The translations under genes were made by a program, and so were the position numbers. Positions 3,221 through 58,600 of a stretch of DNA of 64,000 bases are shown piece by piece. The stretch covers positions 3,847,556 through 3,911,555 of the forward strand of contig CAJINV010000009.1 in NCBI GenBank assembly GCA_905178155.1, in the 5' to 3' direction. Each line of letters opens with the position of its first letter. The stretch's first letter is position 1. The notes below the pieces were generated by a model. It had not been told where the DNA came from. It was given only the letters and a program-made list of their open reading frames with translations, and made no database searches. The DNA comes from Amoebophrya sp. A120. Lineage: Eukaryota; Protista; Dinoflagellata.

Positions 3221-4222
3221 TCCGGGCCCTGTAACTGTAACCACACACCCCAGGCGACAGGTGCAGGCGACAGGCGAAAGGAGAGGCGAAGCGACAGGCA
3301 AAAGGAGAGGCGAAGCGACAGGCGAACCGACAGGCGAAACGACAGGCGAAACGACAGGCGAAACGACAGGCGACGACGACAGGCGACGACGACAGGCGGC
3401 GGCGACAGGCCAAAAGTGGCAACTTTTCACGCGGTTCCGCACCAGCAGCAGCAACAAAAAAAAAGCACAGAGCTACTTACTTCCGCGAAGAAAAAAGGGG
3501 CTCTTTAAGTAACAGAGTTGCTTTTTTCTTCTTGCAAATAATTGGCCCTTTGCTTTTTTTTTGTTGCTGCTGCTGCTGCGGAACCGCGTGAGAAGTTGCC
3601 ACCTGTGGCCTATCGCCGCCGCCTGTCGTTTCGCCTCTCCTTTCGCCTGTCGCTTCGCCTCTCCTTTCGCCTGTCGGTTCGCCTGTCGCCGTCGCCTCTC
3701 GTCCTCACCTGTCGCCGTCACCTGTCGCGACGAACAAACTCTATTTGTCCATGACAAGCGCATTTTTTTACTTCTCAAAAATAAATAGTGACTTACTTAC
3801 TAAAAGCAAATCTTATTTATTTTTGAAAAATAGAAAGTAGGTGGCAAACGCATGCGTTCGAGTTTCTTCACTCCGTCTCGGGTTAATTTATTCACGTGCG
3901 TGAAATAGTTACTATTTCTCGAATGTGAATAAATTAACTATTTTTTGCACATGGACATGAATTAAGATAAAAGAGTTGCTTTTTTCTGTCGAAAGTCAAT
4001 AATTCTTTTATTTATTTTTTTGCTTCTAGTGTTGATTCTGCTGGTGCGAAACCGCATGAGAAATGGCCACTTTTGGCCTGTCGTCGCCGCCTGTCGTTTC
4101 GCCTGTCGTTTCGCCTCTCCTTTCGCCTGTCGCTTCGCCTCTCCTTTCGCCTGTCGTCTCACCTCTCGCCTTCACCTGTCGCCGTCACCTCTCGTCTGGG
4201 GTATGTGATAACAGAACCCGGA
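3221..4222. repeat. Foldback structure with 12-bp GGCGAAACGACA internal repeats
   Basis: Arm ~3221-3470 is the reverse complement of both ~3550-3730 and ~4040-4222; AT-rich spacers. Confidence 0.85.
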
Positions 4223-4314: not shown

Positions 4315-7300
4315 TGTGTGGATTTACCGGAAAAATCCGAGGCGCTATTCGCAAAATTGCCTATGTTCGCGAATTACATGCTGGTGGAAATGGAAAAAAA
4401 AGCGAAAACGTTGAACGAGTGGTATAGTTTTGTGTTTGGAAGTTATTACTTCATCGTGTTTGATGCATGACAAACGCATACATTTTGACGTGCCGGCAAT
4501 ACAAATTTGCTTTGCCAAAAATTCTTGTTCCACCTTAAAAAAATCGTATCTTATCTTCAGGCTCGACCGCTACCGCTTCTACATGAACCTGGAGCAGGGC
4601 AAACCAAAACCCGACGCGGAGGGGCAACAGAGGATTGCGAAGCTCCGGAACGACTGCGACACCGTCCTCGAGGATCTAGCGAAGGACCGGTGGCAAAAGA
4701 TGTGGAGCCGGTTGAACCCCAAAACGAACTCTTTCGTCACCGACGAGCGGGCCTGCGCCGACCGGAAGGTGATGCTGCTGAAGCAGATGGCGATGGTGAT
4801 CCAGGTTTTGATCAGGAGTAAAGAGTCGGGGCACTGGTTTGCACGGGATCTACTACCCTATTCTGGAAAGGAAAAAATGCAGGCGTTGGTGGAAAATATC
4901 AACACGATCAAGAAAGCGTATTTCCAGTGCGACACGTTTGAGAGAATGGAGAAGTGGCTCGGCTTCATGAAGAAGGAGGCGGAAGGGAAGTTTTTGAAGA
5001 AGGCGGACAGTATCATGAGTAAGTACGGGACTGTGTGCTCCTTAGGGTCCGGGGGAATTTGCGGTTTGAAATCCGGGAGCCCAAACGAGATCATGAAAAA
5101 CGCGATGGATGGTATACTAATACATGTTGATGTGATCTTGGCGATTTCCTGTTTGTGTTGAAGCGTTTTTCATCTTGCATCACCCAACTACTTACATCAC
5201 TAGCACTACATGTCGGGGGACATGTGTGGTGTTGCACGTCTGCTCCATTTGTTCAATTTGCAGCTCTGAATTTCATCACCAAATCTATTCTCACTCTATC
5301 AGGCGCCACCACTCCTTGCGAATACGTGGTCGCGCACCACTTGCTTCCCCACCACAAAACCAGCCCGATTCTTATGACGGAGAAGCTCAGGTGTTTGATT
5401 GGCACGGAAATTTGGGAAGATTTGCACGACAATTTTCCCCTCTACTGCAAGTTGATTTACCTTCTCTCCGACGGCCACAAGGAGTTCATTCACTTGGTCA
5501 GTTCCGAGTGCATTTTCGAATTCCTGAAAAAGCACTTCCGGGAGTCCATGTTGTTTCTCCACACGATTATAGACGTGCCGAAGAACGGAGGAGGTCCGAA
5601 TAACACCCAGAACAAGAATCCGATGCAACTGCAAAACCAGCAGAACAACAACAATAATCCCTCGGAACAGACCACGAAAAAAGTTCTTCGGATCTACGTC
5701 TTAGGGGAGGATGACGACCACAATTTCATCCCCGCAGTCAAAACCATCACCGGCTTAGTGATTGACAACACGTCGACGAATACCCCCGCGCCGAGTTTCA
5801 AGCAGGAATTTCCGAACTTACTCAGGGAGTTCCAGCATTGGCTGGATAAATTCCCGAGGGAGCTCATGGTCCCCTTTTCCCCGGGCCACATGGCGATGCA
5901 CAACTTCGGCCAGATATGAAAGCCTCAGGTTGGAAATCCTCAAAGTGGAAATAATTTGTAATGCAAGAAAACGACTCCAGTTGAACTTGAAGCACCATTG
6001 CTAGTCGGCGCATGAGAAATCTCCCGGACACTCAAAACGTGTCTGTCATGCTAGTTAGGCAAAGGGGTGCCCTTCTGTCGTGCTAGTCAGCAGCCCAATT
6101 CTGAACCAGTAGAAGCACAACAGTCGGCCTCCGTTGCGTCCACTGCAATACAGGGTTTTTTGCGTCGCATTTCACGCGTCACAAATTATTTCCACTTTGA
6201 GGATTTCCATTCTGAGGCTTTCATACCAGATGCAGATCGTTTTCAAATCCGGTGACGATACGACGACGAAGAAGACGCATGTGTCATTCAGAGATCCGAA
6301 AACCGGGAACATCACGGAGTTGACAATCAGGGATTTTCTCGAAAAGTTCGGGCCCGTTGGGAAAAAGGCGGATGAAATTAAGGAGATCATGGAGCAACAG
6401 TTGAAACAGAAGCAAGAGCAACTACAGCAACAGCAACTCTTGCAGCAGCAACAAAACAGGCTAGGAGCAGCTGGAGTTGTTCCTGGAGCCCCGGGCGGGC
6501 AGCCGCCGCGGCAGCAGGAACACCACCCATTGGCGGTGCAGGGTGCGAAGGAGCTGGCGAAGGTGTTGAAAGACAACCCTATCCCGATTAAAAACGTACC
6601 CACACCAGAGTCAAGATGGGGATTTTGCAACACAAACCTAGGAGTTTTGGGAGTCACGCATGACAAGTTTCAGTCTGTAAGGTAGTGCAAGTTAGCAAGG
6701 AAAGCCGCATCACAAATCGATCTGCTGATCCTGTTTACAGCATTACAAGTTCCCAAACACGATTGAGAATGCCTGTCATGGGGTTGCGCATCACAAATGT
6801 TCCTGTCATGGCAAATCTGCATGACAACTATGGTGCTTTTGGCTCAAGGAGAGCGCAGGCATAGCCTCAACGCCCCGCGCGTCTGTGTGCGCTTTGAAAA
6901 AAAACTAAAAAAAAAAAAAAAAATGTTCGCTGGTTCTTTTGGTGCTCCTCCCCACAGCGCCGGCACAACCTCCTCGGGATCGGGCCACGCAACTCGGAGG
7001 GACGAACGGCGCCGGCGAAGCACGCCTACAACCCAAGTGCGGCCCCAAGTGCGTTCGGCGCGGACGCGGCTCGGGTCGGCTTTGGCAAATGGACACCACG
7101 TTTCGCGCGGAGGCCCCCCAGCTCGCCCAAGCCAGTAGCAGCAAGCTCAATCGAGTCTTGTTCCCCATGCACAATAGATGCGAGGTAAGGGGCGCACAAT
7201 AGATGCGAGCTCAAGGCTTGGCACCGCTGGGGGGGATGGTCTTGGCCACATCGCGGGAATTTTCCCGCCGTGGAATCGACAATGGACCTGGCGCCGGCGT

Positions 7301-9179
7301 TTTACGCTTCTATGTTGCTCCCGCGTGGGCTGCGGTCCGCGTGAAGAAGCGTGTTCTACTTGAGCCGCCTTGCCAATCGTGTATCTGTGCTCCGAGCTTC
7401 TGGGCAAGTGTAAAGCATGCTTCTTGACCGCCAAAGTTTGCGGTCAGGTGGATAAGCATTAATTCTCGCTGCATCTCTTACCTTTAACTTGGATGTCTAA
7501 ACATCACTTCAGGCCTGCGCTTGTCGCTTAGTGTCTCCAGTGAATGCATTCATCCAGACAGTAGCTACGGGCTTTGCCGCAGGCTGCAGCTTTCTCTTGT
7601 AGTTGTGTGCCTGGCTGTACATTCCCGATATAGTGGTTGCGAGTTGGAAGTTTGCGAGAATCAGAGTAAGGAATTGTTGGCAAAAAAGTGAGGCGTTGTT
7701 CTGTTGGCAAGTGGGCACAAGTTGGCACAGTATGGCTGTTGGCACAGTATGGATATGGTTGGTGGCGATAACAGAGTTGGAATATAGTGGCCGGGAGATG
7801 ATGGTGATGGCACTTTGGCGTCCGCCTGACCCACCCGCCCTGCGTCTCAAGCCATCTGCGGCCATGGCACAATGGGGGGGCAAAGTGTGTCGCATTTTGT
7901 TTAGCATGACAACTATGGTGTGGGTACGTTTTTACTCAGGATAAACCCGCAGGCAAATCTAACCGGGGACGAGATCGTGAAGCGCGTGAAGGTATCAAAT
8001 GCAAAAATGTCTGGGTCTGGGACGAGATTGCGAGATTTGTCATGCTAGTCTGGCATGACTCTTAAATCTGTCATGCACGTTTCCCAAGAGCCCCATTTTG
8101 CTGTCATGCAGAAACGCAGTTTGCCATGCAGAATAGGCAACACCTAGAAGCTCAAAAGCTTGTCATGCTGAGCCAGCATAATTTGTGGCCTCTTCATGAT
8201 ACGCCACCCAGCATCACAAGTTTCCAGACCCAGACACTTTTACAATCCATACAAGGAGTTTGTCGCGACGTGCGGGAACATCGTGAAGCTTCACGAACAG
8301 ATGCAGCGGGAGTACCATGCGGAGGTGCAGCGAAGGGGCGGGCCGAATCATCCGAACGCGAAAACGATCGCGCCGGTCCGCGCGTTGGAGTCGATGTTGA
8401 AGCTGCAACTGGTGATTGCGACAACGAATAACCCCCAGCTCCACTCCGTCGCGCAACACCCAAAATTCCACACGATGGACCCGAAGCAGCAGCAAGCGAT
8501 GTTGCAGTACGTTTTGACAAATTCGGCGAATTTACCCGGGGGAAACAACAGTACTCAGGGAAATAATAATCAGGCGCAGCAGAATAATATGAACCAGCAT
8601 CAACAAAATAACCCGAATCAGTTGAACAGCATTCAGCAGCAATTACTGCAGCAGCACCAGCAACAGCAGAACCAGATGCAGCAGCAACAGCACATCCTGC
8701 CCATACCAAATCAACAGCAAAACCAGGGCAATAATATCATGCCCATGATTGCTCGGCAACAGCAGCAGTACAATCAGCAACAGCACAATATGCAGCAGCG
8801 ACATCAAAATAACATGATGAACAACTGGAGCCAAAAGGGTGGAAAGGGTGGAAAACAACATCACAACAACAATTACGGCGGGATGAATAACAACAACATG
8901 CATCATCAACAGTACAACAACCATAACCAACAGCAGCAACAACAATACAACCAGCAACAACAATATCAACAGCAGTTGCAAAATAACCAGAATCAGCATA
9001 TCTCACCACCCCGGCAAAACCAGACAATCTCCGCCGCGAGCTTGCTAGGGAATATGTCGATGTCGGCGGGGAACACGCCCGCGTCGACAAACAAACGGCA
9101 GTCGATGGAGCACAACAGTCCGGCGAAGAGGCAAAACGCGCCGCCCGTGAAGTTAGGGGAAGAGGATGATGAGTTGTAA
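4315..9179 (+). CDS. 5'-partial multi-exon hypothetical protein with Q/N-rich C-terminus
   Basis: Exons ~4315-4421, 4561-5111, 5303-5914, 6231-6579, 7949-7991, 8256-9179 join in frame (NEWLDRY, MDGATTP, FGQMQIV, KDNPQAN, RVKEFVA); stop 9177-9179. No family recognised. Confidence 0.8.
4422..4560 (+). other. GT-AG intron (GTATAG...TTCAG) with relic introner motifs
   Basis: In-frame join EW-LDR; contains GCATGACAA and GCAATACAA. Confidence 0.8.
5112..5302 (+). other. GT-AG intron (GTATAC...CTATCAG)
   Basis: In-frame join DG-ATT. Confidence 0.8.
5915..6225. mobile_element. Introner family C
   Basis: 45-bp TIR TATGAAAGCCTCAG..GGAAATCCTCAAAGTGGAAATAATTTGT with 2 mismatches; direct repeat CCAGA/CCAGA. 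Confidence 0.93.
6836..7903. mobile_element. Nested insertion with 17-bp duplication, probably retroposed
   Basis: GCATGACAACTATGGTG at 6819-6835 and 7904-7920; no TIR; starts with an SL fragment and has an internal poly(A). Confidence 0.85.
6837..6923 (+). other. Dinoflagellate spliced-leader fragment + 48 nt + poly(A)
   Basis: TTTTGGCTCAAG (6837-6848) equals the last 12 nt of DinoSL DCCGTAGCCATTTTGGCTCAAG, one base inside the insertion boundary; A8-CT-A17 at 6897-6923. Confidence 0.75.
7993..8251. mobile_element. Introner family A (forms a GT-AG intron 7992-8255)
   Basis: TIR TATCAAATGCAAAAATGTCTGGGTCTGG; repeat GAAGG/CAAGG. Confidence 0.92.
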
Positions 9180-11238
9180 GTAGTACAACTACCAATAGCA
9201 GTGCTAGCGACCTTGATTTACTGCAACATATGGCGGCTGTTGAAGAGAAGTGTCAATGTAACTCATGTTCAGTTTTTGTTTTGCAACGCAACAAGAAAAT
9301 TTACAACTAAATTACAACGATAGAAGCTGATCTGGTGATTAGCCCGCAGTCAGAATCTGTACCCTTTAATTGCTTGAGTGTCAACATGTTTTTTACCTAG
9401 GATTTCAAACACGCAATATCTGCGTTCAAATTCCAAGCAGCACTTGGAAATTTTCACAAGTTTTTCTGTCAGTCCTTTGTGTTGGACATGGACGTCGACG
9501 TGGATTTGCAACATACAAGAATGGCGGAAAAACTACACTCTACAGTTTGAAAAGCAAGACGATGAAACGTCAAATGGCGTTGGCTAGTAGACAGGCCCTG
9601 TTTTGGCGCTCCTGTTGTAAGTCAATATTCGTCACCCGCGCAGTCGCGTGCAATGGCTGAGCAGCCACAGCATTTTTTCTTGGAGAGCACGAGTTTGACT
9701 TTGTGTTGGAATTTTATGCTTGAGAATTACGAAGTAATTCGTTAGCACCAGTTTTGAGTCCATGGAAAAGAAGAGTCGTCTGCTCTCGTCTTCGTCTCGT
9801 CCATGTCTTCGTCCTAAGATCTAGTTGGTGGGTCGCGCATACCGCAAATAACGCGACGGCACAGGCAAACGTTCTAGCTCCGTACTGGCCCAGTCTCGGG
9901 CGTCTAAAGTCTCTTACTAGACTAGAAATAGTAAGAAGTTGAGAGAAGGAGAGAGGTAGAGACTTTCTTGAGAGGGAGCGTTGTAGCTCATTGACAACTG
10001 GCGAAACCTTCGCAGGTCTGCAGTGGCGAGACCGGTGCTGCGTGTGTAGCGGGGAGCCTTGGCCGACAGGCCGCCCCCGCTCTGCGGAAGCATGGCGCGG
10101 GCCCCCACTCTGTGGGCCACCGATTGCGTGTGGCGTCTTGAGTCGGCAACTCGTCGCCCATGCGTTTGGCGCCGCCCCCACATGGACGAGGGCACTGCCG
10201 TCAGCCGACGACAAGAACAAGAAGAGGAACGAGGTGGGTCGCCCGTCGTCTTCCGCGCGCCGAGCGGAGCCCTCAGGCCATTCGCTCGAGTGGCAGGCAG
10301 GGCCGGCCGCCGCCCGCCACATGCCGGCGCGGTAGCGGCCTGCCCGCATGTGGCGCCGACAGTGTCGGCGGCTTGTGCTTGTGTAGGGCGGGCGTCGCCC
10401 CGGCCTGCGCCGTTCAAGCCCGTCGCGGTCGGCATTGGCCGGGGGGGGGGCAGGCAGTCTTGTCGCCCGGCAATGGGGGCCGTTTCGCCCCTTGTGGTGA
10501 CCCAGGAGGCGTCGGCCGGGGCCGGCGGCCGGGTGGCATTGGGCCGGCGCGCTGTCGCTTTATTTTATTACGGCGGGTCAGTGTTATATTGGGCGCGGGC
10601 GCCAGCTGCAGCTCAAGCTCTGTATACATAGCTCGCCCAGTTCGCTGCGGTTGGGGTCGCATCGGTGGAGCGGGGGCCCAAAGCCGATGAGGCGTGTCAT
10701 CTGTGTATCTTCTGTTGTCTAGATATGCCACGCGGCGGCCACCGGGAGCCCGTTCGCTCAATCCGCTTCCGGTGGCAAGAATTTGTGTGCGTTGATATAG
10801 CAGCTTTCATCGACTGCTTTTTGCGCAGGAGCGTCCGTGCCGAAGAGGCTCTCTGTGAGTGTGGGCGCCGTGGTTTGACGATGTGCTGTGCCTGCGTTGT
10901 TGCGGGCAGTGGTGTTCTTTCATTTTCAATGATGGAGAGAATGAGCAGTAAAGGTAAACTAAAGCGTTGCCACCGTTGTGTGTGAACCCCCCGATTGGCG
11001 TGCCGATGAGCGATTGACAGGAGGAGCAGATATGTATCGAGCAGTTGCAGCTGTGGTCACAACTTCCATAGAAAATTATGCGGGGACTGTTTGCTCTAGC
11101 TCTTGCTCATCCTCACGCGAACGCGTCAAAATCAACATACATCTCGATCTGTCTCCATTAAACCCCAAGTTGTTTTGATGCGCTCGAAGTCCACCTCCCG
11201 CTAGCAATCTCTGATTGCAGCACCTGCTGCTCCACAAG

Positions 11239-11882
11239 ATGTTGTCTGCCGCGCTGCAGCGGACAGCGACATGTGGCCTCAAGATGAACAGGAACAGCTG
11301 CCGTGTTGGTTTAAAATCAAATAAAATTCCGGCACCTTATTTCAGACAGCAGCACTTCCAATCCCGCTTCTTCGCGGGCTCGATTCCGCCCCCAGATCCC
11401 AGTAGTAAGAAGTACCCGGTGGTTCCTGCGGGTGTTGGGACCGTAGCCCCAATGGAGGTCTACAACCCGCACGCCAACTGCTACACCGCCCTGGACCCAC
11501 TGAACCCAGGACAAGCGTGCAGTGACATGGGAGGCGGGAATGAAGGTACTACATGTCTGTAGAAGTGCTGACGTGTTTATGATCCTACGTCAACATCCTT
11601 TTTGTCGTGCGTGACCTACGATCTGATGTGAACGCCAACGCGGACGTGCATACATAGGAAGACTCGCACGACAAACTGCCAGGTATCCCCCGCGAGTACA
11701 TCGCCGCTTTTATCCAGCAACAGACTAAGCGAGAGCCGGAATTTCTCGGCGTCAGTACTTACTCCGGGTTGATTTGGGCGGTGCTTGCGGGCTGGTACTT
11801 CATCTACGGCTACTTCAACATCACCAGCAACTACCACGACACCTTCTGGCCACGCGTCTTCCTGTTTGGACTTTTCGACTAA
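11239..11882 (+). CDS. Small single-TM protein with mitochondrial presequence-like N-terminus (168 aa)
   Basis: Exons 11239-11545 and 11683-11882 (GT-AG intron); basic, acid-free N-terminus MLSAALQRTAT...FQSRFF; TM GLIWAVLAGWYFIYGYFNI. Confidence 0.7.
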
Positions 11883-25000: not shown

Positions 25001-28000
25001 TTCCCCGACCATGAACGTCAACTGCATCCGGATCTGGCAGCACTCCCAATTCTTCAGCCGGAACATGAAACTGGAGTATTGGGACGGGGTGCGGTACGCG
25101 CAAAAGGACTACGGAATCGGGCAGAGCTGGAATCTGCGAGGGTTTAGTGGAGGCAGTTGGCAAAGGTAGTACGATAGGCTTTGAAGATTCCTTGACGAGT
25201 TGTTGTAGTCTTCATGCAGTAGAAGGGATGAAAGTCGTGACAAGGAAAGAAGAACTGTGAGCGGTGTAACAAGTCTCGTCTTTTGTACCGTCGTGAAGAC
25301 GGATATTGATTCGAAATTAATTTTTACGAAAAACCGATTTTACGAAGATCAAAATTTATCGATCCCCCGAAAAACAACTTTATCCCAGGTGGCCGGCCTC
25401 CTACCAAACCATCTGGCGGATTGAAAACGCGGTTATGATCCCGGAGTCCTGGGAAATCGACGAGCTCGGGTTCTACGACACGGTAGGCTGCCTAGCTACG
25501 CCATTAGGAACCGCGGACGACATCATCGTGTCCGGCTACCGGGGGGATCACTACGGCTCTCTCGCCATGGACGGCTACGTCCGGTCCGACATGCGGGAGC
25601 GAGACGACGGCGGTTTCGTCCGGTACCCTAACTCCTTCTGGCGGTCCGGCTGCGGCCCCTGCTACCCGAAAGACGCCTACATCGGGCAAGACTTTGGATT
25701 TCAAAGAAGGCAGGTCAAGTGCATTCGGATCTTCCAGGCGCCGGCGATAGAGCGGCAGAGTCCGATAATTGACTTGACGTATTGGGACCCGAGCCAGGAC
25801 AAGTTCGTGCTGGATAGTGATAAAAAGTTCTACTCGATTGGTGGCGGCAGTTGGAACCGGAGACCGGCGATGAGCAACAGCATGTTCCGATTAAGGTGTA
25901 TCCTGTGTAAAAACGTCCCCACACCAGAGTTGTCATGCAATTCTGCATGCCAAGAAAGTTTCTCATGCGGAGCTCTATGTATGAGAGGCATTTTCTGTTC
26001 GTGTTTTGGAATTTGTGATGCTAGGATCAGCGTACTACGCTAGATCTGTGATGCTTCTGAACTAGCTAAACAGGATTACACTACGAGGACATCAAACTTG
26101 TCATGCCAAACAACGAAAGGTAGCTGATTTGTCTAGCAGATTTCCCATCTTGACTCTTTCTGTGGGGACGTTTTTAATCAGGATAAAGTGGGTCCAAACC
26201 CGGCCCAAGTCGAAGAAGTGTGAAGCAGGAAGATTATCCGCAGTAAATTTCCCGTACACGTACAAATGCGGTCTCTGCATGACAAAACTTGGCTTCGGAC
26301 CGCCACGACCCACTGACCCCCGGTCACGTGCCGTCCGGCCGGCCGGACGGACGTGACCCGCCCGGTCACGTCTAGGCTCCTTGTTATCTTGTAATTTTTA
26401 GGGCAGGGGACCTAAGGCCCACCCACCTGGGTGGGTCGAAGGTCCCCTGAGGACCTAAGCGGACATTTTGTGACCCTCTTCTTATAAAATCCACGCATTT
26501 TTCGTGTGGTTGTCCTAGGTGAGCTAGCACCCGTACCCGTGGGCAACCATCTAAGACACGAAAAATGGCGAGCACTTTAGTCCTTGGCTTTCTCTGGTTT
26601 GGTCATGAGTGTGGGCCACTTCTTAGGGTGGTCGAGAAAGTCAGGCTAAAGACGGTACGGGCAGAAGTGGATCGGTTTAAACGCGCGCTGGTGTTTAGTA
26701 CTTAGTAGCTTTTTAGGGCTTTGGGTATATTAATTTCCCGTCTTGGGGTTTGTAATGTAGTTGTTGCGCCTTTGGTTGTTTGGTCATGTTCCGGCTTTTT
26801 GCATGATCTGATGCTGTCTCGGACGTTGGCGCTCACGGTTCCTTCTCTGCTCTCTTGGAGCGGACGTTTTTGCATTTGTCCGCTGCGACAGTTCGCCTTG
26901 TTGCTGCTGCTCGCCATGAAAGCAACTACATTGCTTCTCGCCTCACTTTTTTAAGATGGGTTTTTTCGTAGATGGGTCTGTGTCATAGTAGATGCTTTAC
27001 CGCTTTTTTACTTTTCTTTTCTCCCTCGGCGCTAGTGTTATGGGTTTGCATACTCAGATAACAACAAAAGCTCATCCTGCAGCCGTCCCAGGAGCTCTTT
27101 GTTGTTGTCTCTCGGTAGTGATTATTTTGTCCAAATCTATTTCGCCTAGAGTTTGCTGGGTAGGCGGCTACCGTTTTACGACAGTTTACACAGGGACGCC
27201 CTGCCCTTAGTTTCCCAACATGACAAAACTTGGCTTCGATCCTAGGTTAGCATGACAATTTTTACCCTCCTACTTGGTGAAATTTGTGATGCATCTTGTA
27301 CATGTACGGGAAATTTGTATTGCATAAAGATACCGCTCTTTCACCCGGGCTTGGGGCGTGAGCGAAGTGGAGTTTTTCTCCGACGACAAATGCGAGTCCA
27401 AAATCCCGCTGGAGAACAACGGGCGCGAACCCGTATGAGAGTGCGCAACTCCCACTCCCCCTCAGTTGTATTGCATGAACAGCAATGCGAACACCTGCAC
27501 AGCACGTGGAGCAAGTGCATAACAAATTCATGTGCCTAGTGTAGTACTGTTTTGTTTGGGGTTCTTCCGGAATCTGTCATGCAAAAAGTGCTACTGGAAA
27601 GCATTTGCGTTTGGGGTTTTGCATGACAAAGGAGGGGGAGGGGGACGAGTTGTGCACTCTCATAATCCGGGGAGCCGAACCAGAATATCGGGTCCCGGCA
27701 GCGGAACATGGTCGCGACGGTGGTGTCCGGGGGGTACAAACAAATTGCCGCGCAGGCATCCGTCACCTACGACTACTACCCGCTGAACGTTGCTTATGGG
27801 AGTGTCAGAATCGAAATCGACAAAGTCGAAAAATTTGTAATGCATAAAATGCAGGGCACGCAAGGCCTGTATTGGGGAACAGGCAAATGGGGCCGATTGC
27901 AAGCCTGTTTAGGGCTAAGCAATGTGCAGCCCGAGTAGCATGACAGGAGCAGTCTTCTTTGCCCAAACAGCATGAGAGACTGGATTTGGGTGCTCCCGAT

Positions 28001-31000
28001 ATTTCTCATGCGGCACTTAGGAACTGAGGCTCTAACTGGCATCGATTTTGTGCATCGCAAGTTTTTCGATTTTGTCGATTTCAAACCTGACGCTTCCATA
28101 TTGCTGACGGTAAATTTTCGACCACCTGGGCGGCGGATTGCCGAACCGCGATCAATATCCTGTGCAAAAGTATCGTACTCGTATTGCAATCATGCATTAC
28201 AAATTTTTTTCTGAACGCAAATCCGCATTACAAATTTTATTTCTCGTTATGCTGAGGAAATTTGTAATGCATTTATACGAGTGCGATACTTTTGCAGTTC
28301 ATAATCAATGGGGTGATTTCCGACGAAGCCTACTGCAGCAACCGCGACTGGGTGGGGTTCGATTTCGGCGCGCCGAAGACGGTGAAGTGCATCAAGATCG
28401 TCCAATCCCGCGCGGATTTGAACGCTTGTTGCGACCCTTTGATCCGGATGTCGATGGATCGGTGGAACGGGACAGATTGGGTGGTGTCCACCTGGCGTCA
28501 CGTATGAAATGTAAAAATGTCTGGGTCTGGAAGATTGCGAGATTTGTCATGCATATTTCGGATCACGCAAATGGCGTCTGATGCAGGCAAAAGCATCACA
28601 GGTTTTGAGCACGCCTCATGATGCCTGTCCCGCATGAGAAACTTCCTACTTGTGTGCCAAGAAATTGAAATGGACAGCTTTTGGCGCTCATGCAACACAA
28701 ATTTTTGTGTGATCCAGAGTTTGCATCACAAGTTCTAACCATTCCAGAACCAGACATTTTTACATTTGATATCACGAACCCCAGGACGACGGCTCCAGAC
28801 CCGCGGTGTTGGTAAATGCGGATTTTTCCAACATGGGCCAGTGCGGGAATAACTTCGTGGAGATGCGGGGGCGGAAGGAGACGGAGTCTTGTTCCATTCC
28901 GCTGTCGTCTATCACCAGAACTCTCGGTCATCCCCTCTGTATCAAGCACGACTGGTGCACGGAGATCGGGTTTAGGGGGACGTGTTGTCCAATCGACAAG
29001 GTGGATATGCTCTGCAGAAGTATCGGACTCGTAGTAATTGCTGTTATGCATGACAAATCTCCTTTGATTAAGGTAAACAGCATTACAAATGTCATTTGTA
29101 ATGCTAAGCAAATTTGTCATGCAATTACTACTAGTACGAAGATACTTTTGCAATGCATAGTGGACCATAGAAGTCGTTGTTGCTGCACGTATTTGAAAAC
29201 CGTTCCGATCTTCGTCGACGAAATCCCGTTGGAAGACAGAGGGGAAGCGTACGACAAGATGGACTTGGAGATGGTGACAATCAGTTGGACTAAGGTTCTT
29301 CCCTTCTGGTTCATGATTATGACGGTCATTTGGTTCACGCTTGTGAACATCCAGGAACCGCTATGAGAGTGCACAACTCCCCCTCCCCCTCATTTGTAAT
29401 GTAAAACCTCAAATCCATCTGCTTCCCTGTGGCACTGTTCGCATGACAGATTCCAGAAGCCAAAACAGTACGACAATAGGCGTATGAATTTGTCATGCAC
29501 AGGCTCCACGTGTCCTGGTGATTGTATTGCTGTTCATGCAATACAAAGGAGGGGGAGGGGGACGAGTTATGCTCTGTTATAACCGCCCAAGGACCACAAG
29601 TACTACATCTACTGGGAGCGGCACTGCTTGCCATTACAGCGGTGGTTCGACGGGGAGGGTTACGCGCAGCGGTTCTTGTATCCTGAGTAAAAACGTACCC
29701 ACACCAGAGTCAGGATGGGGATTTTGCAACACAAACCTAGGAGTTTCGTGAGTCACGCATGACAAGTTGCACTCTGCAGTGTTGTGCAGGTTAGCAAGTG
29801 CAGCCGCATCACAAATCCAGCTGCTCATCCTGTTCACAGCATCACAAATTCCAAAACACGATTGGAAATGGCTCTTATGGGGATGCGCATTACAAGTCTT
29901 CCTGTCTTTGCAAATCTGCATTACAACTCTGGTGTGGGTACGTTTTTACTCAGGATATCTTGAGGAATTTCCGGTTGAAGCCAGAAGAGCCACCACATAT
30001 GAAGGTATAGGATTTTGGGGTGATACTGCTATTTTCGCTATTAGCGAACCTGAAAATAAAGCTAGGTCTCGATCATTTGCCATGCGTAGTTTTTGTGGGA
30101 TAATTATGAAGATTTCTGATGCCGAAGGAAACCCTTAAACAAAAAAAATATCAGGTCGGCAAGGGTCTCTTCATCGCGATCACCTTCTTCATTCTCGGCG
30201 GCGCTTTGATCTGGATAATTCTCGCGTACGTGATCGCGGAGTTCATTCTCTTCTGCTACTTCATGGCAATCCTCGTCGTGAAATTTTGCAAGTCCGTCTA
30301 TTTCCCGGGCCACGACCACGACGAATGGAGAAGACACGCGATCACTCAGATCGCGATCAACCCAGACCAATCCGATGTGAAGTACCCGAGCAGTTTGTCG
30401 CTGATAAAAACCATGGGCGTCATATGGAACTGTCAGGCTTGAAATCGTCAAATTTGAAATTATAGTTTGCCATGCATAAAATGGATGCCAGTCGGAACCC
30501 AGTTTCCAAGTGGCGCATGACAAATTTTGGCGGTCCTTAAAGCCAGTTTGTCATGCTGTTTAGGCAAAGAAGACTGATTTTCTCATGCTACTTTAGCAGC
30601 TCGAGCTCTAACCCCAAACAGGCTTACAATCGGCCTCACTTGCCTTCTCTGCAACGCACGTGCCTCGCGTCATGCATTTTCTGCATTACAAATTATTTCA
30701 ACTTTGACATTTTCAAACCTGACGCTTCCATACGTCACCTTCGCCTTCACCTTTTTCTTCTGGGCCAGGTGGGTGTTTGACTTACTGCTCTTCCAGTCGA
30801 TTCTGTTCATCATGGGCTTAGGCGACACCAACATTTCCGCGTACATGATCATGGACCAAGTGCCACGGGTTTCCATTCCCGCCTTCGACGCCGCGATAGA
30901 ATCGGCGACAAATATGATGCGGGGCGTGTTAGGCCTTATGCCGATGACGTACATGGAGGTGCTGTTCTTCTTTTTCAACGGCATCCCGAGGTGTAAAGGA

Positions 31001-36049: not shown

Positions 36050-39000
36050 TAGTAGTGGTGTAGTCGGAAAAATAAACGTTGACAAAACTGTAAGAAAGCC
36101 AGCCGGTTGAAACTAGAGCTTTAGTTTGTTTACATTTATTTTCTTCTTGAATCACGATAATATTCGACGCGGCGAGCTCGAGCAGCGCCGCTGTGATAGT
36201 CTTCAACTCATCTCAATCAAAATACAAATAGCAAATAAAAGAAAAGCACCAACGCTGTGCGAGTGCAATTCTAAACACCTTTTGGACTTCTTTCTAAACA
36301 GTTACTATGGTCTTAAACTACAGAAACAACTCTTGACGAAACAGTTACACTAAGGATCAAAACTTAGCGACAGCAGTTGGCTTCTTGCAAAGTCCCTACT
36401 TCGCTTCTACCTCTCCCTGCTTCTTCTAACTATCTTCGCCGCAGAGACGCGTAGCCAAAGCTTGCTACCTTTTTGCACAGAGAGGCGAGGTCGCAGCGGT
36501 GGGAATTGAGCGGGCGGGACTTGAGGAGCCACAGCTATTTCGCGGGAAAAGTAGTAGAACTTACCTCTTTTCTAAATTCTTGCAAAATAATTACCGCACA
36601 GTTGATGTTGTTAGTTTGGCACACGAGGGGGTTTTGACTGCAAAAAGCAAAACACCTGTACTTTAGTTTGTGTAGTTCTGTTTCGATGTCTTCATTGTGC
36701 CTCGTCTTGAGCCAGAAACCTCCATTCGCGATCTTTATTCAGTAAGAGAGCACGACGGCCATGGAAGATAGCAAGCTGAACTTTTTCACTTGCAGATCAT
36801 CACAATTACCTTCGTTGCCATTTAACACTCGCCGCGTTATTTGAAAGAATACCCTACACCCTATTCTTGCCTACCCTTGTCTTCTGGAACCGAAATTGAA
36901 CCCGACAAACCTTCACCCAATTTTCTTTATCTTGCATTTGAACCTGTTACCGAGCGAACAAGCACTGAGACTCCTCAATCTGTCGGCCCTACCGACAGAT
37001 CGGGGGTTGAATTCAATTTACCATTCTAGATTACCATTATGCAGAGACAACAATGAATTCTACTAGTACTAGCGTCAGAAGACGCTGACGCAGCGACTTC
37101 AATGAATCGTGGAGCGGACGACTGCCGCCCCTGCGATAGAAAAGTCTAGTATCGAAGTACGAAGCATCAGCTTCAAAGCACACACGTCAGAACAGTTTAT
37201 ATCCTTCGAGTATCCACCAAACCTAATTTTACGAAAAACAGTAGCACAACTTGAGCAGAAGTTTTCAGTGATCTTTACAATTGAGCTTTTCTTGCACTTG
37301 ACTTGACAAAAGATTATGCGGCATTATGGAAGATGAGGAAGAGTTTTCGTGGTGGAAATGAAATGCTGAAATGATTTGGAACAACTTTTGTAAAGAACGA
37401 GAGCTAAAAGCACTTGCAAGAAAGAAAAAAAGAAAATCCCAAGCTATCACGTCAGCCGGTTGTTTTCCAGAAAAGCTCAAGTGTTCGCACTGCTGCTTCG
37501 TGGTTTCTTTTGTCGTGCGTCCGACTTTTGGGTGAGTCGTGCTGTGAGCGCAATGACTTTGGTGGAAAGCGTGACCATAGTAGGCTGGGGCGCGGCGGCC
37601 TTTTCTGCGACCAGGGCAAACAATCCGCGACCAGGCCCAGAAGCCGAGCGAATACGAGCGCGGGCGCGGCCCTTCTGCTTATTTGTCTAGAAGTAGCACG
37701 CGGCGAAGCGCTAGGCCCGCCGCCAATAATCAGCGACGGGGCGAAGCGTAGGACGGGGCGCAGGGTAGCGCTCGGACCTTTGTTCTGGTTCTGTCGTGTT
37801 GCGTGTGTCGGCTGAGCCCCCGCCCGGCGCCGGATTTTGCGCGCGTTCGGCACCATTGCGCGCGCGCCGGCCTTTGCCGGCCGTAGTTTCTTTGTCCCGC
37901 CTGCGCGGCTTTCTCCGTGGCGCCGCCCGCCGGTTGGGTTTGGGTTTCCTTCCTTGGTTGCCGGCGGGCCAGCCCGCCCGCCGCGCCCGCCTGGCGTGGC
38001 GCGGCAAGCAGGAAGGGCGGCGCCGCCCCATGTGGCACAGGGAGGCAGCCCCTGCCCGGCTGCGCGAGGCGGGGGCCAGGGCAAGGGCGCACAGCTGGCG
38101 CCAAGATCAGCGCAGCCCGCGCAATCAATGGCACGGGCAAAGGTCAAGGCGATGCGGACGCGCGCCGGCGCTTGGGTTATCATCCCGATAACCAGGCGAA
38201 CGGCCGGCCGCGACCCCCCCCGCGCCCGCGCCCCCTATGCGCCTGCTTGGGGCCCCCCCTGTTTCCCCGCCATGCGGGTGGCGCGTTTGTGTGTTTCTTT
38301 GTTGGCCGGCCCGTAAGTAGTTGCGTGCCTGCTTGCTTGGCCGGCGGGCCCCGCTCTTTGCTCGCTGTCAGCCCTGGCCCCGCAGCATTGTTTCGCGGCC
38401 CCCCCCCCCGCGGCCCGCGTCTTTGGGGGTGCGTGGCCCCGTCGCGGCCGTGTTTTGCTGGTTTCTTGGTTGGCAATGCGCCGGCGGCGCTCTTGCCTCC
38501 CTGTTACGCAGACAGCGCAGGGGGTGCGCCCGCCGGCTTCCCCGTTCTTTCGGGTGGCGGCCAACTTCAGCGCCGCGATTTTCTTTTGCGAGCGCTCCGC
38601 TCGTTGTCCCCCATCTAGCGCGATGTCACGCCAGTGGATCCGGGGCCGCTCGCCCGGTGGGTTACGAACGAACGCTCGCTATCAATCTAGTGAGTGTAGT
38701 TGCCTGCCGCATTGCCATTTTTATACTATTATATATCGACAGGAGGAACCCCGCCAGGTTGTGCCTCCGAGCGAGCGATAGGACACGCCCGCCACCGTTT
38801 TTCGGTTGCTTGTTCTGACTGTATCAGCCGCGTTCGCATAATGTTCAGGCAAGATGTCTGTCGCTATATTTGTTTCCCGGTTCGGCCGGCTGGTGTGTCT
38901 GTATCTTAGGAGCTTCTGCGCGGACGGAGCCGTCCCTTGTCTATTCCGGCGGGTTTTTATCACGGAGTGAGTGTGAGCAGAAATAAAGTTAAAGATGTAG

Positions 39001-52617: not shown

Positions 52618-55600
52618 ATGGATGTGGATCAGGATCACGGCATAGATCCTGATCCACAGAATGACGATCTTCCCGTAAATCCGCCAACAGAAGGGCCACA
52701 TCAACATCAACCCCAGGAACTACATCATAAACTCGAGCCGGAAAGCGAGCCGGAACTGGAGTTCTTATGAACTGCAAAAGTATCGTACTCGTAGTATTGC
52801 AATACAAATTCGCTCAGCATGACAAATGGAATTTCTTATGCTGATTTGCCTTAACAACAAGACTTGTAATGCATGTTGATTACACTTATACGAGTGCGAT
52901 ACTTTTGCACAGGATAGTTTTCCAAAGCGGACGAAATCGCATTAGCTGTGACGAAGAAATTTGCGCAGTCCAAGGAGCATGGCAAGCCGCAGAAGGAGAA
53001 CAAGGAGTGGACGGTTTTGGCTGGGATCGTTCTCGAGGAGATCGAGTGTGGGAATTTCACCAATTCGCAGACGACCTTCAACAAAACGAAGTTGAGTTGT
53101 ATCGTCTTCGCGACGGGGACTCGGTGCTTGAGTCCGAGTTTGCTGGTGCTCCCGCCTTTGGTGGAAGAAAAAGCGGGTGAGGAGGAACAACTAGAAGGAG
53201 CGCAACGAGATGAAGCTGCTCCGGCGGCCGCGCCGGAAGTTGCTCAGAACAAGCGGGGCCGTGGGAAAAAGAACAAGAAGTCTGCTCTTGCTAGCACAAT
53301 TTCGACGACAGCATCATCTTCCTCTTTCTCTTCATCATCGTCTTCCCACTGCTCCGCGCTAGAAATTTTATCCCCCGTCAACAAAAAACGTTCGAAAAAA
53401 CGAAAAAAACTTCGTTTCGGCCCCACCTTCCACCAACTGCAATCCGAGCAGAACATGAGTAAATTACACCGAAGACTTACTAAGACGACCAACAGGCTGC
53501 CGAATAATTGGTCGATTCCAGATAGACCGATGAAAAAACCGGCGGTCGTGAAAGGGAGGAAACAGGACGAGAATGTCATAAATAGTCCGTTCCGGGATTT
53601 GGTGTTAAGGGATTGCCACGCGGAAGTGTTGGCGCAAAGGGGGTTCAAACTCTGGCTACTGCGGAATCCGGAGAAGGCAAAGTGGTATTTTGAAGGAAAG
53701 GCGAGGTTTCATTTTTACACCAGCTGCGTTCCCTGCGGGGAGGCGGCGAACGTGGAGATGGGAGGTGGCAATCGTGGCCATGGGACTACAGACAGCTCAC
53801 CAGACGAACTGCTGCACAAGAGCGGAACTGCAGCCACACAAGAACCTTCTACCAGCGCAAGCTCGTCGTTTACTTCTTCATCCTCCTCTTCATTCTTGGC
53901 GTCTTCACAATTATCCCAAGCCGCTGCTAGTGAACAACAAACCCAAGAAAAACCCCAGCACTACACCTACCCCCTCAAAACCGGCGCGAAACCCGTGGAA
54001 CTCCAGCAAAAAGAAAACAACGAAAACGCGAGACTGGGTAAAGCCACTACATTGCACACCAAGCCGATCGATTCTCGCTCCGACCCTAGCAAACGATCCA
54101 AGTGCATGTCGTGTGCTGACAAAATTTGCCGGTGGAACGCCTGTGGCTGGGACGGGGGCGTATTAGCCGCTCCTTTGTACGGGTTCGAACTAATGAATAA
54201 AAAAGATGATCAACATGGTCTATCCACCGCCGCTCCTGAATCGTCATCAGCTACATCCGAAGCCGCAGCGGCCTGTGGGATTCGCATGTCCTCGATTGTC
54301 ATCGGGGGCGCGACCTCGTTTGACGATTTTTATTCGGCTGCAAGACAGCTGGATGATTTCTCAAAAAAGAAGTACGAGCAGAAGTTGTGGGACGTGCTTT
54401 GTGGGCGGGTGTTGCAGATGCGGCACGAGGAGCAGTGTGATGGAGAAGACGCAGGAACTACAGCAGCTTCGTCATCATCTCGTGGTGCTGGTGGAAGTAC
54501 AACTGGAAGTGGAACTGCGCCGGCGCATGACGTTCAAGTCGGTGTTGCTGACGTCGTGGGCAATACCAACACAGGAAGCAAAGTGGACGAGCACGATGAT
54601 GGTTATGGTTTCGAACCAATCCCGCTCTTGTCCGAGTTGGATGACGATAACAGTACCCAGGAGGAGGTGGAAGCCGAAACTGCGAAGCGAAGGAAAGTCA
54701 CTGAAAATAAATCTTCTGATGGTGAAACATCTTCGCAAGGTCAACAAGGTGCTGGTGCTGGTAGAAGTAGTGCAGTATCATCTACAACAGCCGCTTCCAC
54801 GTCCGGCGCCGCGGTGCAGCAGCAAGGTTATGGAAGCGTCAGGATTGAAATCGTCAAAGTTGAAATAATTTGCAATGCATAAAATGCATTACGCGAGGTG
54901 CGTGTATTGCAGAGCAGGCAAGTGAGGCCGATTGTAAGCCTGTTTGGGGTTAGAGCTCGAGGTGCTAGAGGAGCATCAGAAAATCAGTCTTCTTTGCCTA
55001 AACAGCATGACAAACTGGGTTTAGGGGCCGCCAAAACTTGTCATGCGCCACTTGGAAACTGGGTTCCAACTGGCGTCCGTTTTATGCATGACAAATCGTT
55101 TCAACTTTGTCGATTTCAACTCTGACACATCCATAAAGGTCAATCTTCGGATAATGAAACGTCGCAAGGTCAACTACTAGGTGCTGGTGCTGGTTGTAGA
55201 AGTTATCGCGCCAAAAAAAATGATCATACTCATACTTTCGCCATTTTTGGCCAAAATCCAGTCAATCGGAATCGAGGCAAAAAAGTCCACTTTTTTGCGT
55301 ATGACCACTTTTTTTAGCCAGGACGCTATGGCGATCCTGGTGCTTTTTCAGAATCAGCCTTGTCCGCCCGTGATTTGCATTCTTTTAAATGTGGCGCTTT
55401 TCTGCGTTTTGGAAGAATAGCGCCGCGCTAAAAAAAGTGGTCATACGACTTTTTGTCGCGTTTTCTTCTAGAAAAGTTGAAAAAAGTATGAGCGCCCCAA
55501 TTTTAGGGCGCCGGAAAATGGTATGATCACTTTTTTCAAACACGGCGGTATGGGCCACATGTGGCCCACGCCAGGAAAAAAGTGATCATACCCAAAGTCG

Positions 55601-58600
55601 CCGCATTTTCAGTCTTTCTTGCAGAATCTGTGAAGAAAAGTGCTACTTTTCAGGTCAAAAACGGCAAAAGTATGAGTATGATCATTTTTTTCAGCGCGAT
55701 AGAAGTGCAGTATCATCTACAACAGCCGCTTCCACGTCTGGCGCCGCGGTGCAGCAGCAAGGTCAATCTTCGGATAATGAAACGTCGCAAGGTCAACTAC
55801 TAGGTGCTGGTGCTGGTTGTAGAAGTGCAGCATCTTCTATAGCGGCAAAATTGGTATTCGTATTCAAAAATCGCAAAAATTTTTCCCCCCGCCCAGCTCA
55901 CTAGTGCAGGCGCCCCCGCCTGCGGTGCCTGTTCTTCCGCCTCCGATTTAAAGCCCTCGACGGCCGCTCTCCGCATCCCGGTGTTTGAGGAAGCTGCCAA
56001 GTGGTTTTTGACCGATAGCGCAATGACTGGCCCGATCTTGTGGCGGCGCTGGGTAGCCGAAAACGGCTCGCGCCTGGCTTGGGGCTTTTTGACGGGCTGC
56101 AGCTGCCTCGCGGCTTGTCCGTGTCAGCTGCTCTCGGCGTGGCTACACCGACGGCAGATGGGTCCTGCACCCCCGGAAAATTTAGTGCCCACGAATCCAG
56201 CGCACCATAAGGGGCATTACCTGGCCCCTAGATTCTCGGGGCGCCCTACGGGCACCACGCCCATCACTCAGCTGCGCTGTGGAGGCGAAGTGGCGTAGAA
56301 ATGCGCTGCGGCCTCCGCCTACGAAAGTGCCTTTTTGCATTCTTGGCCAGGAAGCAACATCTGTGGCCGCGGCCAAGCGTTCAGAGAAAGCGGAGCATTT
56401 GCAGCAGCCGGTCTCGCGGACCGGCAAACTTGATGACTCGGGGAAAGGATTTTTGCCCTTCCGGATGCCGAGCAAAAAACGCCGGTTTTTTCTGAATACC
56501 AAAGTCAAACACGGTCTGAAATTGGTATTCGCTGGAAATTCTGACTTTGGTATTCAGCGACATTTGACCCCCCTCTCTTGGGGGCAACCTTGGGCAGCTG
56601 AATACCAAAGTTGCGCGGAAGAAAATCCGTCCGAGGTCTCCGTTTCCTGTGAACGCTTGGAAGCGGCCACAGATAATTGCTTCCGGGCCGAAAATGCAAA
56701 GAGGCACTTTCGTAGGCGAAGGCCTCAGGGCCTGTCTACGCCAGCTCTTCTCCGCGGCGCAGCCGATGGGGGTGGTGCAGGTAGGGCGGCCCGGGAATCT
56801 GGGAGCCAGGTAATTCCCCATAGGGCGCGCTGGGTCCGTCGGCACTAAATTTTCGAGAGGTGCGCGACGCATGTGCCGGCGGTGCAGCTACGCCAAGAGC
56901 AGTTGACACGGAGAAGCCACGAGGCACCTGCCACCCGACAAAAAGCCTTAAGCCAGGCGCGTACCATTTTCGGCTATCCAGCGCCGCCACGAGCTCGGGC
57001 TAGTGCTTGCGCTATCGATCGCCACCCCGCGGCGGCTTCCTCAAACACTGAGCGGCACAGCGCGTCGCTCGAGCTCGTTAAGTTGGAGGCGGCAGAAAAG
57101 GCACCGCAGGCGGAGGCGTCTGCACTAGTGAACTGGGCGGGGGAAAAATTTTTTGCTATTTTCGAATACGAATACCAATTTTGCCGTTATATCTTCTACA
57201 ACATCCGCTTCCACGTCCGGCGCCGCGGTGCAGCAGCAACAGCAGGTGGATGACTCGCAGGAGCAGCAGCAAGAGCAAAATGATGTTCGACGAGAGCGTG
57301 GTCGCGAGAATAAATTTCAAGTACCTCTACAGCACGTGAGCGGCCGCACGAGCGGAGTCCTAGCGGAATCCCTCCCCGCAGTTGTTCTCACGAATGTCGA
57401 CTTCGAATTTTCACAGCGAAACGCGAATCTCACCGTCCACAACCACTGCCCAGAGGTGGTGAACGAAGGAGTTCTTCTTGTTGGTGGTGCAGATACTGGG
57501 GGCGAAATGAAGACTGCAGCGGGGGCAGCATCCTCTTCATCCTCATCTTCACAAGCGAAAAGGAACAAGGTAAAGCGGCCTGTTACCACTGGATACAGCA
57601 AGATCTTCGTTGAGGGAGGCGGATTACTGCCACGGGAAGTTGTGAAAGATGTTGAAGGGGGTCCTGGTACTCAAGATGCAGCTCATGTTGGTGAACAACA
57701 GCCCGGCTCTCTTCCCGAAGATGCGGCTGCTGCTGATCCTGCTGCTGCCGGTGGTTCAGTACTACAGCAACCTTCATCTTCTTCCTCTTCATCTTCAACT
57801 TCATCTCCTACCCTCGACAACACCAGGATGACATCTTCTACTTCAGGCTCAACAACCAACTCACCAGAGAACAACCCGACGCAGCAGGAGGAAGTGGTCC
57901 CTCCCGCCCCAACTAGTTCGTCCAGCGGACAAGCTGAAGTTGTAGCTGCTTCTGCCGACCACGTCCCTTCTATGATCCAGCAAGCAACTACAAACAAGAA
58001 TACCATCAAAGTGAAGCCGAAGCGTATGCATTGCAAAACAAGTATCGTGCTCCTACTCGTATAAATGCATTACAAATTCCCTCAGCGTGAGCAATAAAAT
58101 TTGTCATGCGGATTTACCTTGGGAAAAAAATTTGTAATGCATGACTGCAATTACTACGAGCGCGATACTTTTGCACAGGATAAAGCGACCAGATCTCCAC
58201 GAGGTCATTCTCGGCGACTACGGTCTGAAGCAAAATGGCAGGAAATACCTCCCTATGCATTGCAAAAGTGTCTGGGCCTGGAAACCTGTGATGCTGGGTG
58301 GCGCATCATGGGGAGGCCACAAGTGCTGGCTCAGCATAACAAGTTTTTGAGCTTCTAGAGGTGTTGCCTACAACTCTGCATGACAGTCTGCGTTTCTGCA
58401 TGATAGAAAAGTGGCGCTCTTGGGTAACGTGCGGGACAGATTTAACACTCATTCCAGACAAGCATGACATACATGCACTCTTCCAGACCCAGACACTTTT
58501 ACATTTGATACTCCCTGGCTTCGGCTCCGGCGACCGGGAGACCAGGGAAAGGATCAACGCGTCCCTCACGAGGGAGGTGATTGCGCTCCGAAAATTCGGT

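Follow-up and report, generated by a model that had tools for sequence, protein, structure and literature searches.

By what route does a kilobase of DNA that opens with a fragment of spliced leader come to lie inside an intron of a dinoflagellate gene? The question is raised by a stretch of 64,000 nucleotides (nt) of the Amoebophrya sp. A120 genome (GenBank assembly GCA_905178155.1, contig CAJINV010000009.1, positions 3,847,556 to 3,911,555, forward strand), here called the window and used for all coordinates. At 6836-7903 it holds a 1,068-bp insert made up of a C, the 12-nt tail of the dinoflagellate spliced leader (SL), a 48-nt body, the adenine tract A8CTA17 and a second part of 980 nt. 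An earlier reading made from the letters only, the sequence-only reading, had described this layout, which matches the sequence letter for letter. The piece is a genuine RNA-derived insertion of unusual two-part layout, nested in an introner, and we tentatively favour a template jump during reverse transcription as its origin.

The insert is flanked by a target-site duplication

The insert lies within the introner's right inverted repeat and is bounded by an exact 17-nt direct repeat. Taken alone this repeat is weak evidence, because its first nine letters are the motif GCATGACAA, which occurs 69 times in the window (0.75 in mononucleotide shuffles), and at least 17 identical letters are common to 26 of the 2,346 pairs of motif copies. 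Two paralogous introners in the window are empty: both cross the insertion site with one 17-mer and no insert. Moreover, position 12 is an A in both copies of the repeat, and a C in both paralogs and in the introner's own left repeat. The single 17-mer of the empty paralogs and the private change shared by both copies identify the repeat as a true target-site duplication. It arose at insertion and, since both copies share the A, it is younger than the position-12 change and than the introner itself. Duplications of 10-20 bp are described for insertions of long interspersed nuclear elements (LINEs; PMC2104539) and a stagger of 12-18 bp for L1 (PMC10830420), and 17 bp fits both ranges. As expected of a retrocopy made by an element without long terminal repeats (non-LTR), the duplication is thus of about 10-20 bp and single at the empty site. 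The proposal of an RNA-derived insertion flanked by a duplication is supported.

The 5′ junction shows no homology to the continuation of the empty site. This junction, the clean 17-bp duplication with its shared private base and the SL tail at the boundary all argue against the repair of a staggered break with a fragment of complementary DNA (cDNA) or DNA, independently of target-primed reverse transcription, and equally against an assembly chimera. A target junction that lacks poly(A) is what such a repair or chimera would explain, and we regard either as highly improbable. Twin priming or a minus-strand origin was rejected, as poly(A) is missing from both ends of the insert, whichever strand is read.

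The 5′ boundary carries a spliced-leader tail

The exact 12-mer TTTTGGCTCAAG occurs once in the window. With up to one mismatch there are three matches against 0.6 expected, a number reached in 2 of 100 shuffles. The chance of the 12-mer is 5.9e-8 at one given position and about 6e-7 over 10 boundary positions, a rough, post hoc estimate. A120 is described as using a DinoSL-like leader from one SL gene, with at least 37.8% of transcripts carrying a truncated motif of 13 nt (PMC7789003), in agreement with the earlier assignment of the 12-mer to the 3′ end of the dinoflagellate SL. Of the 22 SL bases, 12 are present and 10 are cut off. The C that precedes them, compared with the DinoSL reference (PMC6616646), is either a non-templated base, of the kind reported for L1 ORF2p (PMC10830420), or a leader variant of A120. 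The insert thus begins, one base in, with the end of a processed RNA, a further feature of a non-LTR retrocopy, and a leader tail in this position is the mark of an RNA that was trans-spliced at its 5′ end.

An element that targets SL genes was considered and rejected, as this insertion went into an introner and has its SL bases between the two copies of the duplication; CRE, SLACS and NeSL are elements of that kind.

The head is unlikely to be the SL RNA itself. A copy of a polyadenylated SL donor RNA, with a 22-nt exon and a 48-nt intron, would be 70 nt long, within the 50-83 nt range of Dinozoa SL RNAs (PMC3101222, PMC9399869). The SL intron of Amoebophrya is reported as variable (PMC3101222), polyadenylation of its small nuclear RNAs (snRNAs) has been raised as a question, and GC/GA-AG introns make up 2.95% in A120 (both PMC7789003). 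Such a copy would need an unusual GA donor: GA follows AAG in the insert, whereas SL RNA introns begin with GU or GC (PMC6616646), and a GU donor at this junction is reported to be conserved in the sampled Dinozoa, Amoebophrya included (PMC9399869). The 3′ end reads CTTTG, with three T where the CT4-7G/A tract has at least four (PMC9399869), and no Rfam family matched. This origin is highly unlikely.

The host introner is absent from the annotated protein

The insert is placed in intron 6580-7943 of the gene for P0005, an Amoebophrya sp. A120 protein of 1,463 amino acids. The exon at 4562-5029 encodes 156 amino acids that are 100% identical to P0005, and tblastn maps residues 603-1463 to 4315-9176. 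Residues 1-602 have no tblastn match in the window, and the 5′ part of the gene may be interrupted or located elsewhere. No Pfam family was found in P0005. The annotated protein continues ...KDNPQANLTGDEIVKRVKEF... uninterrupted over the introner, the element being removed in the protein.

Introners of A120 are characterized by a terminal inverted repeat TAT-N7-AAA and a direct repeat of 3-5 nt (PMC7789003). The intron at 6580-7943 is an introner with this signature: it has the TAT-N7-AAA inverted repeat, a short direct repeat and paralogs, and its removal restores the reading frame. It measures 1,364 bp as filled and 279 bp without the insert and one copy of the duplication. Since gene annotation in A120 was guided by transcript alignments (PMC7789003) and P0005 reads across the element, the enlarged 1.36-kb intron, with its terminal repeats kept, is likely still spliced out. 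The insertion would therefore be near neutral for the host gene.

Separately, 12-bp CGACAGGCGAAA arrays lie at 3240-3730 and 3960-4200. They include an inverted arrangement (3268-3415 against 3608-3728), and the right arm has a second copy at a spacing of about 465 bp.

The internal A-tract and a proposed template jump

The A8CTA17 tract is internal to the insert and starts 48 nt after the leader. It contains 25 A in 27 nt, against 20 in the next best 27-nt stretch of the window, where the longest other A/T runs are 9-10 nt. Because it stands so far outside the other A-rich stretches, the tract is likely a copied poly(A) tail.

We place a tentative preference on one reverse-transcription event, in which an RNA of about 980 nt was copied and the enzyme then jumped onto a short SL-capped poly(A) RNA. 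The event would begin with a staggered nick in the right repeat of the introner and with priming independent of poly(A), for which the nicked GCATGACAA may have paired with a copy of this motif in the RNA. A non-LTR-type reverse transcriptase would then copy 980 nt of intergenic or precursor RNA and jump end to end onto the short RNA at its polyadenylated 3′ end. Copying would stop with the first 10 nt of the SL still uncopied, one base would be added, and second-strand synthesis would complete the insertion. Template jumping has been shown for L1 ORF2p (PMC10830420). In A120, non-LTR elements are present and 98.5% of genes lie in co-oriented blocks (PMC7789003). Given these blocks, the putative SL-capped RNA, of about 70 nt plus tail, is most simply and likely a by-product of trans-splicing and polyadenylation and not a functional RNA. 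Such a short SL-poly(A) RNA is plausible, no more.

The sequence-only reading had proposed this jump onto a poly(A) end, and it remains the most economical account, although the same DNA would result from a single trans-spliced transcript whose A-tract is encoded. Its description of the short RNA as lacking an ATG holds for the 48-nt body; the last A of the tract, in contrast, creates an ATG at 6923-6925. That reading had noted neither this ATG nor the surrounding introner, nor that poly(A) is lacking at the right end.

The 48-nt body folds like shuffled sequence

The 48 nt had further been described as a hairpin that can pair end to end. Its ends are able to pair, yet 23 of 200 shuffles reach an equally good fold (z -1.32), as do 150 of 200 once the SL is attached. 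Folding is better on the opposite strand (8 of 200 shuffles as good), and folding of sets of 4 and 5 stretches gave no z below -1.91. The hairpin is thus not borne out.

Known RNA families offered no origin for the head. Rfam searches of 6500-8200 with E up to 10 returned three matches, every one far below its gathering score, and ARAGORN found no tRNA gene in the window, so that an origin from tRNA, 7SL, 5S or another known RNA family, as expected of the head of a short interspersed nuclear element (SINE), received no support from the Rfam and tRNA searches. The 48-nt body has no homolog and the head no second copy within the window. A blastn search of the insert against the window returned the self match, with all other matches at E 0.69 or worse, and local alignments of the head and of the 980-nt part to the window scored within or marginally above shuffles. 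A metagenome search for the pattern of SL tail, 35-65 nt and A12 gave seven loci, none of them with a longer SL or the same 48-nt body, and we judge these to be chance matches. With an ordinary fold, no Rfam match, no window copy and no metagenome relative, the suggestion of a structured small RNA or SINE-like RNA is left unsupported; as to copy number, one copy was found in 64 kb, about 0.06% of the genome, where the lack of further copies carries little weight.

It is a rather improbable reading that A120 makes a discrete, SL-capped and polyadenylated RNA of about 70 nt that acts as an SL-headed SINE, with reverse transcription primed on the introner-wide GCATGACAA and with landing sites in DNA that is spliced away.

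The same searches bear on 3′ transduction, in which a small SL-derived SINE-like element or an older retrocopy elsewhere in the genome would have been read through into 980 nt of its 3′ flank, with renewed trans-splicing at the AG of the relic. A transduction usually leaves an A-tract that is internal and interrupted, with unrelated DNA of intergenic character behind it, and the insert has this layout. Recycling of SL-tagged RNAs is documented (PMC6050394), and strain AT5 is reported to have 53 full-length orphan and 713 truncated SL motifs (PMC6482013). The insert lacks the terminal poly(A) that a transduction should carry, no second head was found in the window, which covers so little of the genome, or among the seven metagenome matches, and the head has no conserved fold. 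We consider a transduction unlikely.

The 980-nt part resembles intergenic sequence

A hexamer model was trained on 18 open reading frames (ORFs) of the window. Coding windows score +0.18 (sd 0.22, n=139), non-coding windows -0.34 (sd 0.22, n=417) and held-out exons +0.45 and +0.53. The 71-codon frame that starts at the ATG of 6923-6925 has a non-coding score (-0.42), and six other frames of the insert range from -0.07 to -0.28, with some scores intermediate between the two classes. A search for homologs of the ATG frame among longer proteins found none in 346 candidates, which counts as weak evidence. Pfam searches over 10 frames of the insert gave nothing above cut-off and two weak sub-threshold matches. 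A protein-coding retrogene is not supported, given the score of the ATG frame, its lack of a homolog among these candidates and the lack of a Pfam match above cut-off.

The 4-mer profile of the 980 nt is closest to GC-rich intergenic blocks at about 10000-11500 and 37500-39000 on the same strand (r 0.43 and 0.41 in the same orientation, against at best 0.33 in reverse). The parts of chimeric retrocopies share one orientation (PMC2104539), and the 4-mer orientation fits this rule, in composition only. Shared 8-mers are highest with a satellite at the window start.

This satellite (197-2500) is a diverged, GC-rich tandem array with units of about 170-183 bp. The blocks at about 9800-11000 and 37500-38900 are similar to each other beyond shuffles (score 825; highest of 10 shuffles, 738). 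The two GC-rich intergenic blocks are possible promoter-like or outron regions.

The composition of the insert also bears on the alternative of one transcript. A transcript with an encoded A-tract, in its two forms taken together, is nearly as likely as the jump. Apart from the transduction discussed above, a single trans-spliced, non-coding or unspliced transcript of about 1.07 kb with a DNA-encoded A-tract and internal priming would need neither a jump nor a tiny RNA. The A-tract would lie either in a retained intron, with a GC donor near 6859, a CTAA branch-like motif and the CAG at 6955-6957, or in a 5′ leader ahead of the ATG at 6923. One RNA then suffices, the sole acceptor-like tract of the insert comes directly after the A-tract, head and downstream sequence are both GC-rich, the A-tract is broken by CT, and internal priming on the abundant GCATGACAA would explain the absent end tail. 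Against this, the 64 kb hold no comparable A-tract (25/27 against 20/27), the ATG frame scores as non-coding and found no homolog, weak as that search is, and donor and branch point were assigned by eye only. On its own, this transcript seems to us unlikely.

Possible priming at the GCATGACAA motif

The wider motif family GCAT[GCT]ACAA occurs 134 times in the window, against 1.35 in mononucleotide shuffles. GCATGACAA may be a shared splicing or mobilisation signal. Copies at 6658, 6819, 29757 and 43378 are examples, and many copies are seemingly in introners of different families, on both strands.

The last hexamer of the insert resembles the natural context upstream of the GCATGACAA that opens the duplication. 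Hexamers that score as high make up 5 of 974 in the 980-nt part and 1.6% window-wide, a post hoc count. With that qualification, the resemblance suggests that the copied RNA itself carried GCATGACAA and primed by pairing with the nicked target.

Evidence against the template jump

Several observations weigh against the template jump. The CT inside the A-tract mildly resembles an older, inherited DNA tract more than a fresh tail. The insert ends ...TTTTGTTTA, with no terminal poly(A) and no tandem repeat at its right end, whereas a non-LTR retrocopy should have poly(A) or an A-rich tail beside the 3′ duplication. Only 18% of true GCATGACAA contexts score as high as the last hexamer, and this signal is post hoc. 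The same-orientation signal of the 980-nt part is compositional only: alignments to the two blocks scored 543 against a shuffle maximum of 536 and 434 against 474, one block in reverse orientation scored 450 against a shuffle value of 427, and the alignments show no homology. Described chimeras have a full-length RNA as 5′ part and mostly a LINE as 3′ part (PMC2104539). Here the SL is cut by 10 nt, so the 5′ part is not full length, and Pfam searches of 10 frames found no LINE above cut-off in the 3′ part, a LINE 3′ untranslated region being beyond this test. Retroposition is called rare in strain AT5 (PMC6482013), and neither a source locus nor a second copy of the insert was found within the 64-kb window. 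The insert works like chimeras and retrocopies, and it is not a typical member because the terminal tail and the full-length 5′ part are missing.

Table 1 Coordinates of the insert, its host introner and related features in the window.
Feature	Position	Strand	Remark
Host exon upstream of introner	6227..6579	+	P0005 residues 1025-1142
Left 5-nt direct repeat AACCC of introner	6575..6579	+	
Host introner	6580..7943	+	Terminal inverted repeats of ~32 nt, 91% identity; starts TAT + 7 nt + AAAAA
Left copy of 17-nt target-site duplication	6819..6835	+	One copy only in both paralogs
Single C	6836..6836	+	Published DinoSL has A
Last 12 nt of dinoflagellate SL, TTTTGGCTCAAG	6837..6848	+	Starts one base inside boundary
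48-nt GC-rich body	6849..6896	+	Begins GA; no ATG
A8CTA17 tract	6897..6923	+	Most A-rich 27-nt stretch of the 64 kb
71-codon ATG frame opened by last A of tract	6923..7138	+	Hexamer score -0.42
980-nt second part	6924..7903	+	GC-rich, then G/T-rich; intergenic-like
Pyrimidine-rich tract ending CAG	6924..6957	+	17/20 pyrimidines; only acceptor-like site in insert at cut-off used
Last hexamer of insert	7898..7903	+	Resembles natural context upstream of the GCATGACAA opening the duplication
Right copy of 17-nt duplication	7904..7920	+	Overlaps right inverted repeat of introner
Right 5-nt direct repeat AACCC of introner	7944..7948	+	
Short host exon downstream of introner	7949..7991	+	In phase with upstream exon
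Second empty paralogous introner	25899..26185	-	More diverged
Empty paralogous introner, 279 bp	29679..29957	+	221/256 nt identical to host introner

Other features of the window

The sole Pfam match among 29 ORFs of the window is an adenosine-deaminase (editase) domain, PF02137, at 52918-54879 on the plus strand (E 5.4e-16). Three homologs of this protein were found, one of them named adat1 of Symbiodinium. Dispersed exact repeats of 35-68 nt at 54769-57240 (54769/55704, 54791/57205 and 55136/55759) suggest a local duplication.

Significance

Retroposition is reported as rare in AT5 (PMC6482013), yet the A120 insert is clearly marked and younger than its introner. The terminal repeat of an introner can accommodate a 1-kb insert of RNA origin without interrupting the annotated gene. 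This has a bearing on how introns are recognized in this genome, in which no U1 snRNA was found: pairing of the repeats, and not intron length, would be what counts. A short SL-poly(A) RNA, if real, would record as a fossil the coupling of trans-splicing to polyadenylation in the gene blocks of dinoflagellates, or else represent a new type of SINE, and it would be shorter than the examples described from Trypanosoma brucei (PMC2936537). Were the improbable SL-headed SINE true, it would be a retroelement hiding inside introners. As a single copy known from DNA alone, the insert remains a curiosity.

Comparison with known systems

Literature searches, with most subscription papers outside their reach, brought up no title or abstract on an SL-headed chimeric retrocopy or an SL-derived SINE in dinoflagellates. 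One likeness is to the Magnaporthe MINE (WEIRD-MGL) and mammalian U6-L1 chimeras as described in PMC2104539, which, like the insert, have two parts within one duplication of 10-20 bp and, as 5′ part, a non-coding RNA of unknown function; their parts share one orientation, as those of the insert apparently do. In contrast to these, the 5′ part of the insert is an SL-tagged 48-nt RNA that keeps an A-tract and is not full length, its 3′ part is tailless and not recognisably LINE, and one copy is known against 33 of MINE in Magnaporthe.

DinoSL-relic retrocopies, the products of ‘mRNA recycling’ (PMC6050394; for AT5, PMC6482013), are likewise recognized by a truncated DinoSL that marks a reverse-transcribed trans-spliced RNA. 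Unlike them, the insert has no coding sequence, its A-tract is internal, 48 nt past the leader, and its target is an introner. SL-capped and polyadenylated non-coding RNAs of 154-2,229 nt that lack an ORF are described from T. brucei (PMC2936537). They share with the putative short RNA the SL, the poly(A), the missing ORF and the setting in co-oriented gene blocks; those were seen as RNA, whereas the present RNA, which would be about 70 nt long, is deduced from DNA only and would belong to another lineage. Finally, the host element shares with the introners of A120 (PMC7789003) the repeat of TAT, 7 nt and AAA and the short direct repeat at the exon boundary, and differs from them in having grown, by an RNA-derived insert, to 1,364 bp, beyond the 40-1,000 bp analysed in that study.

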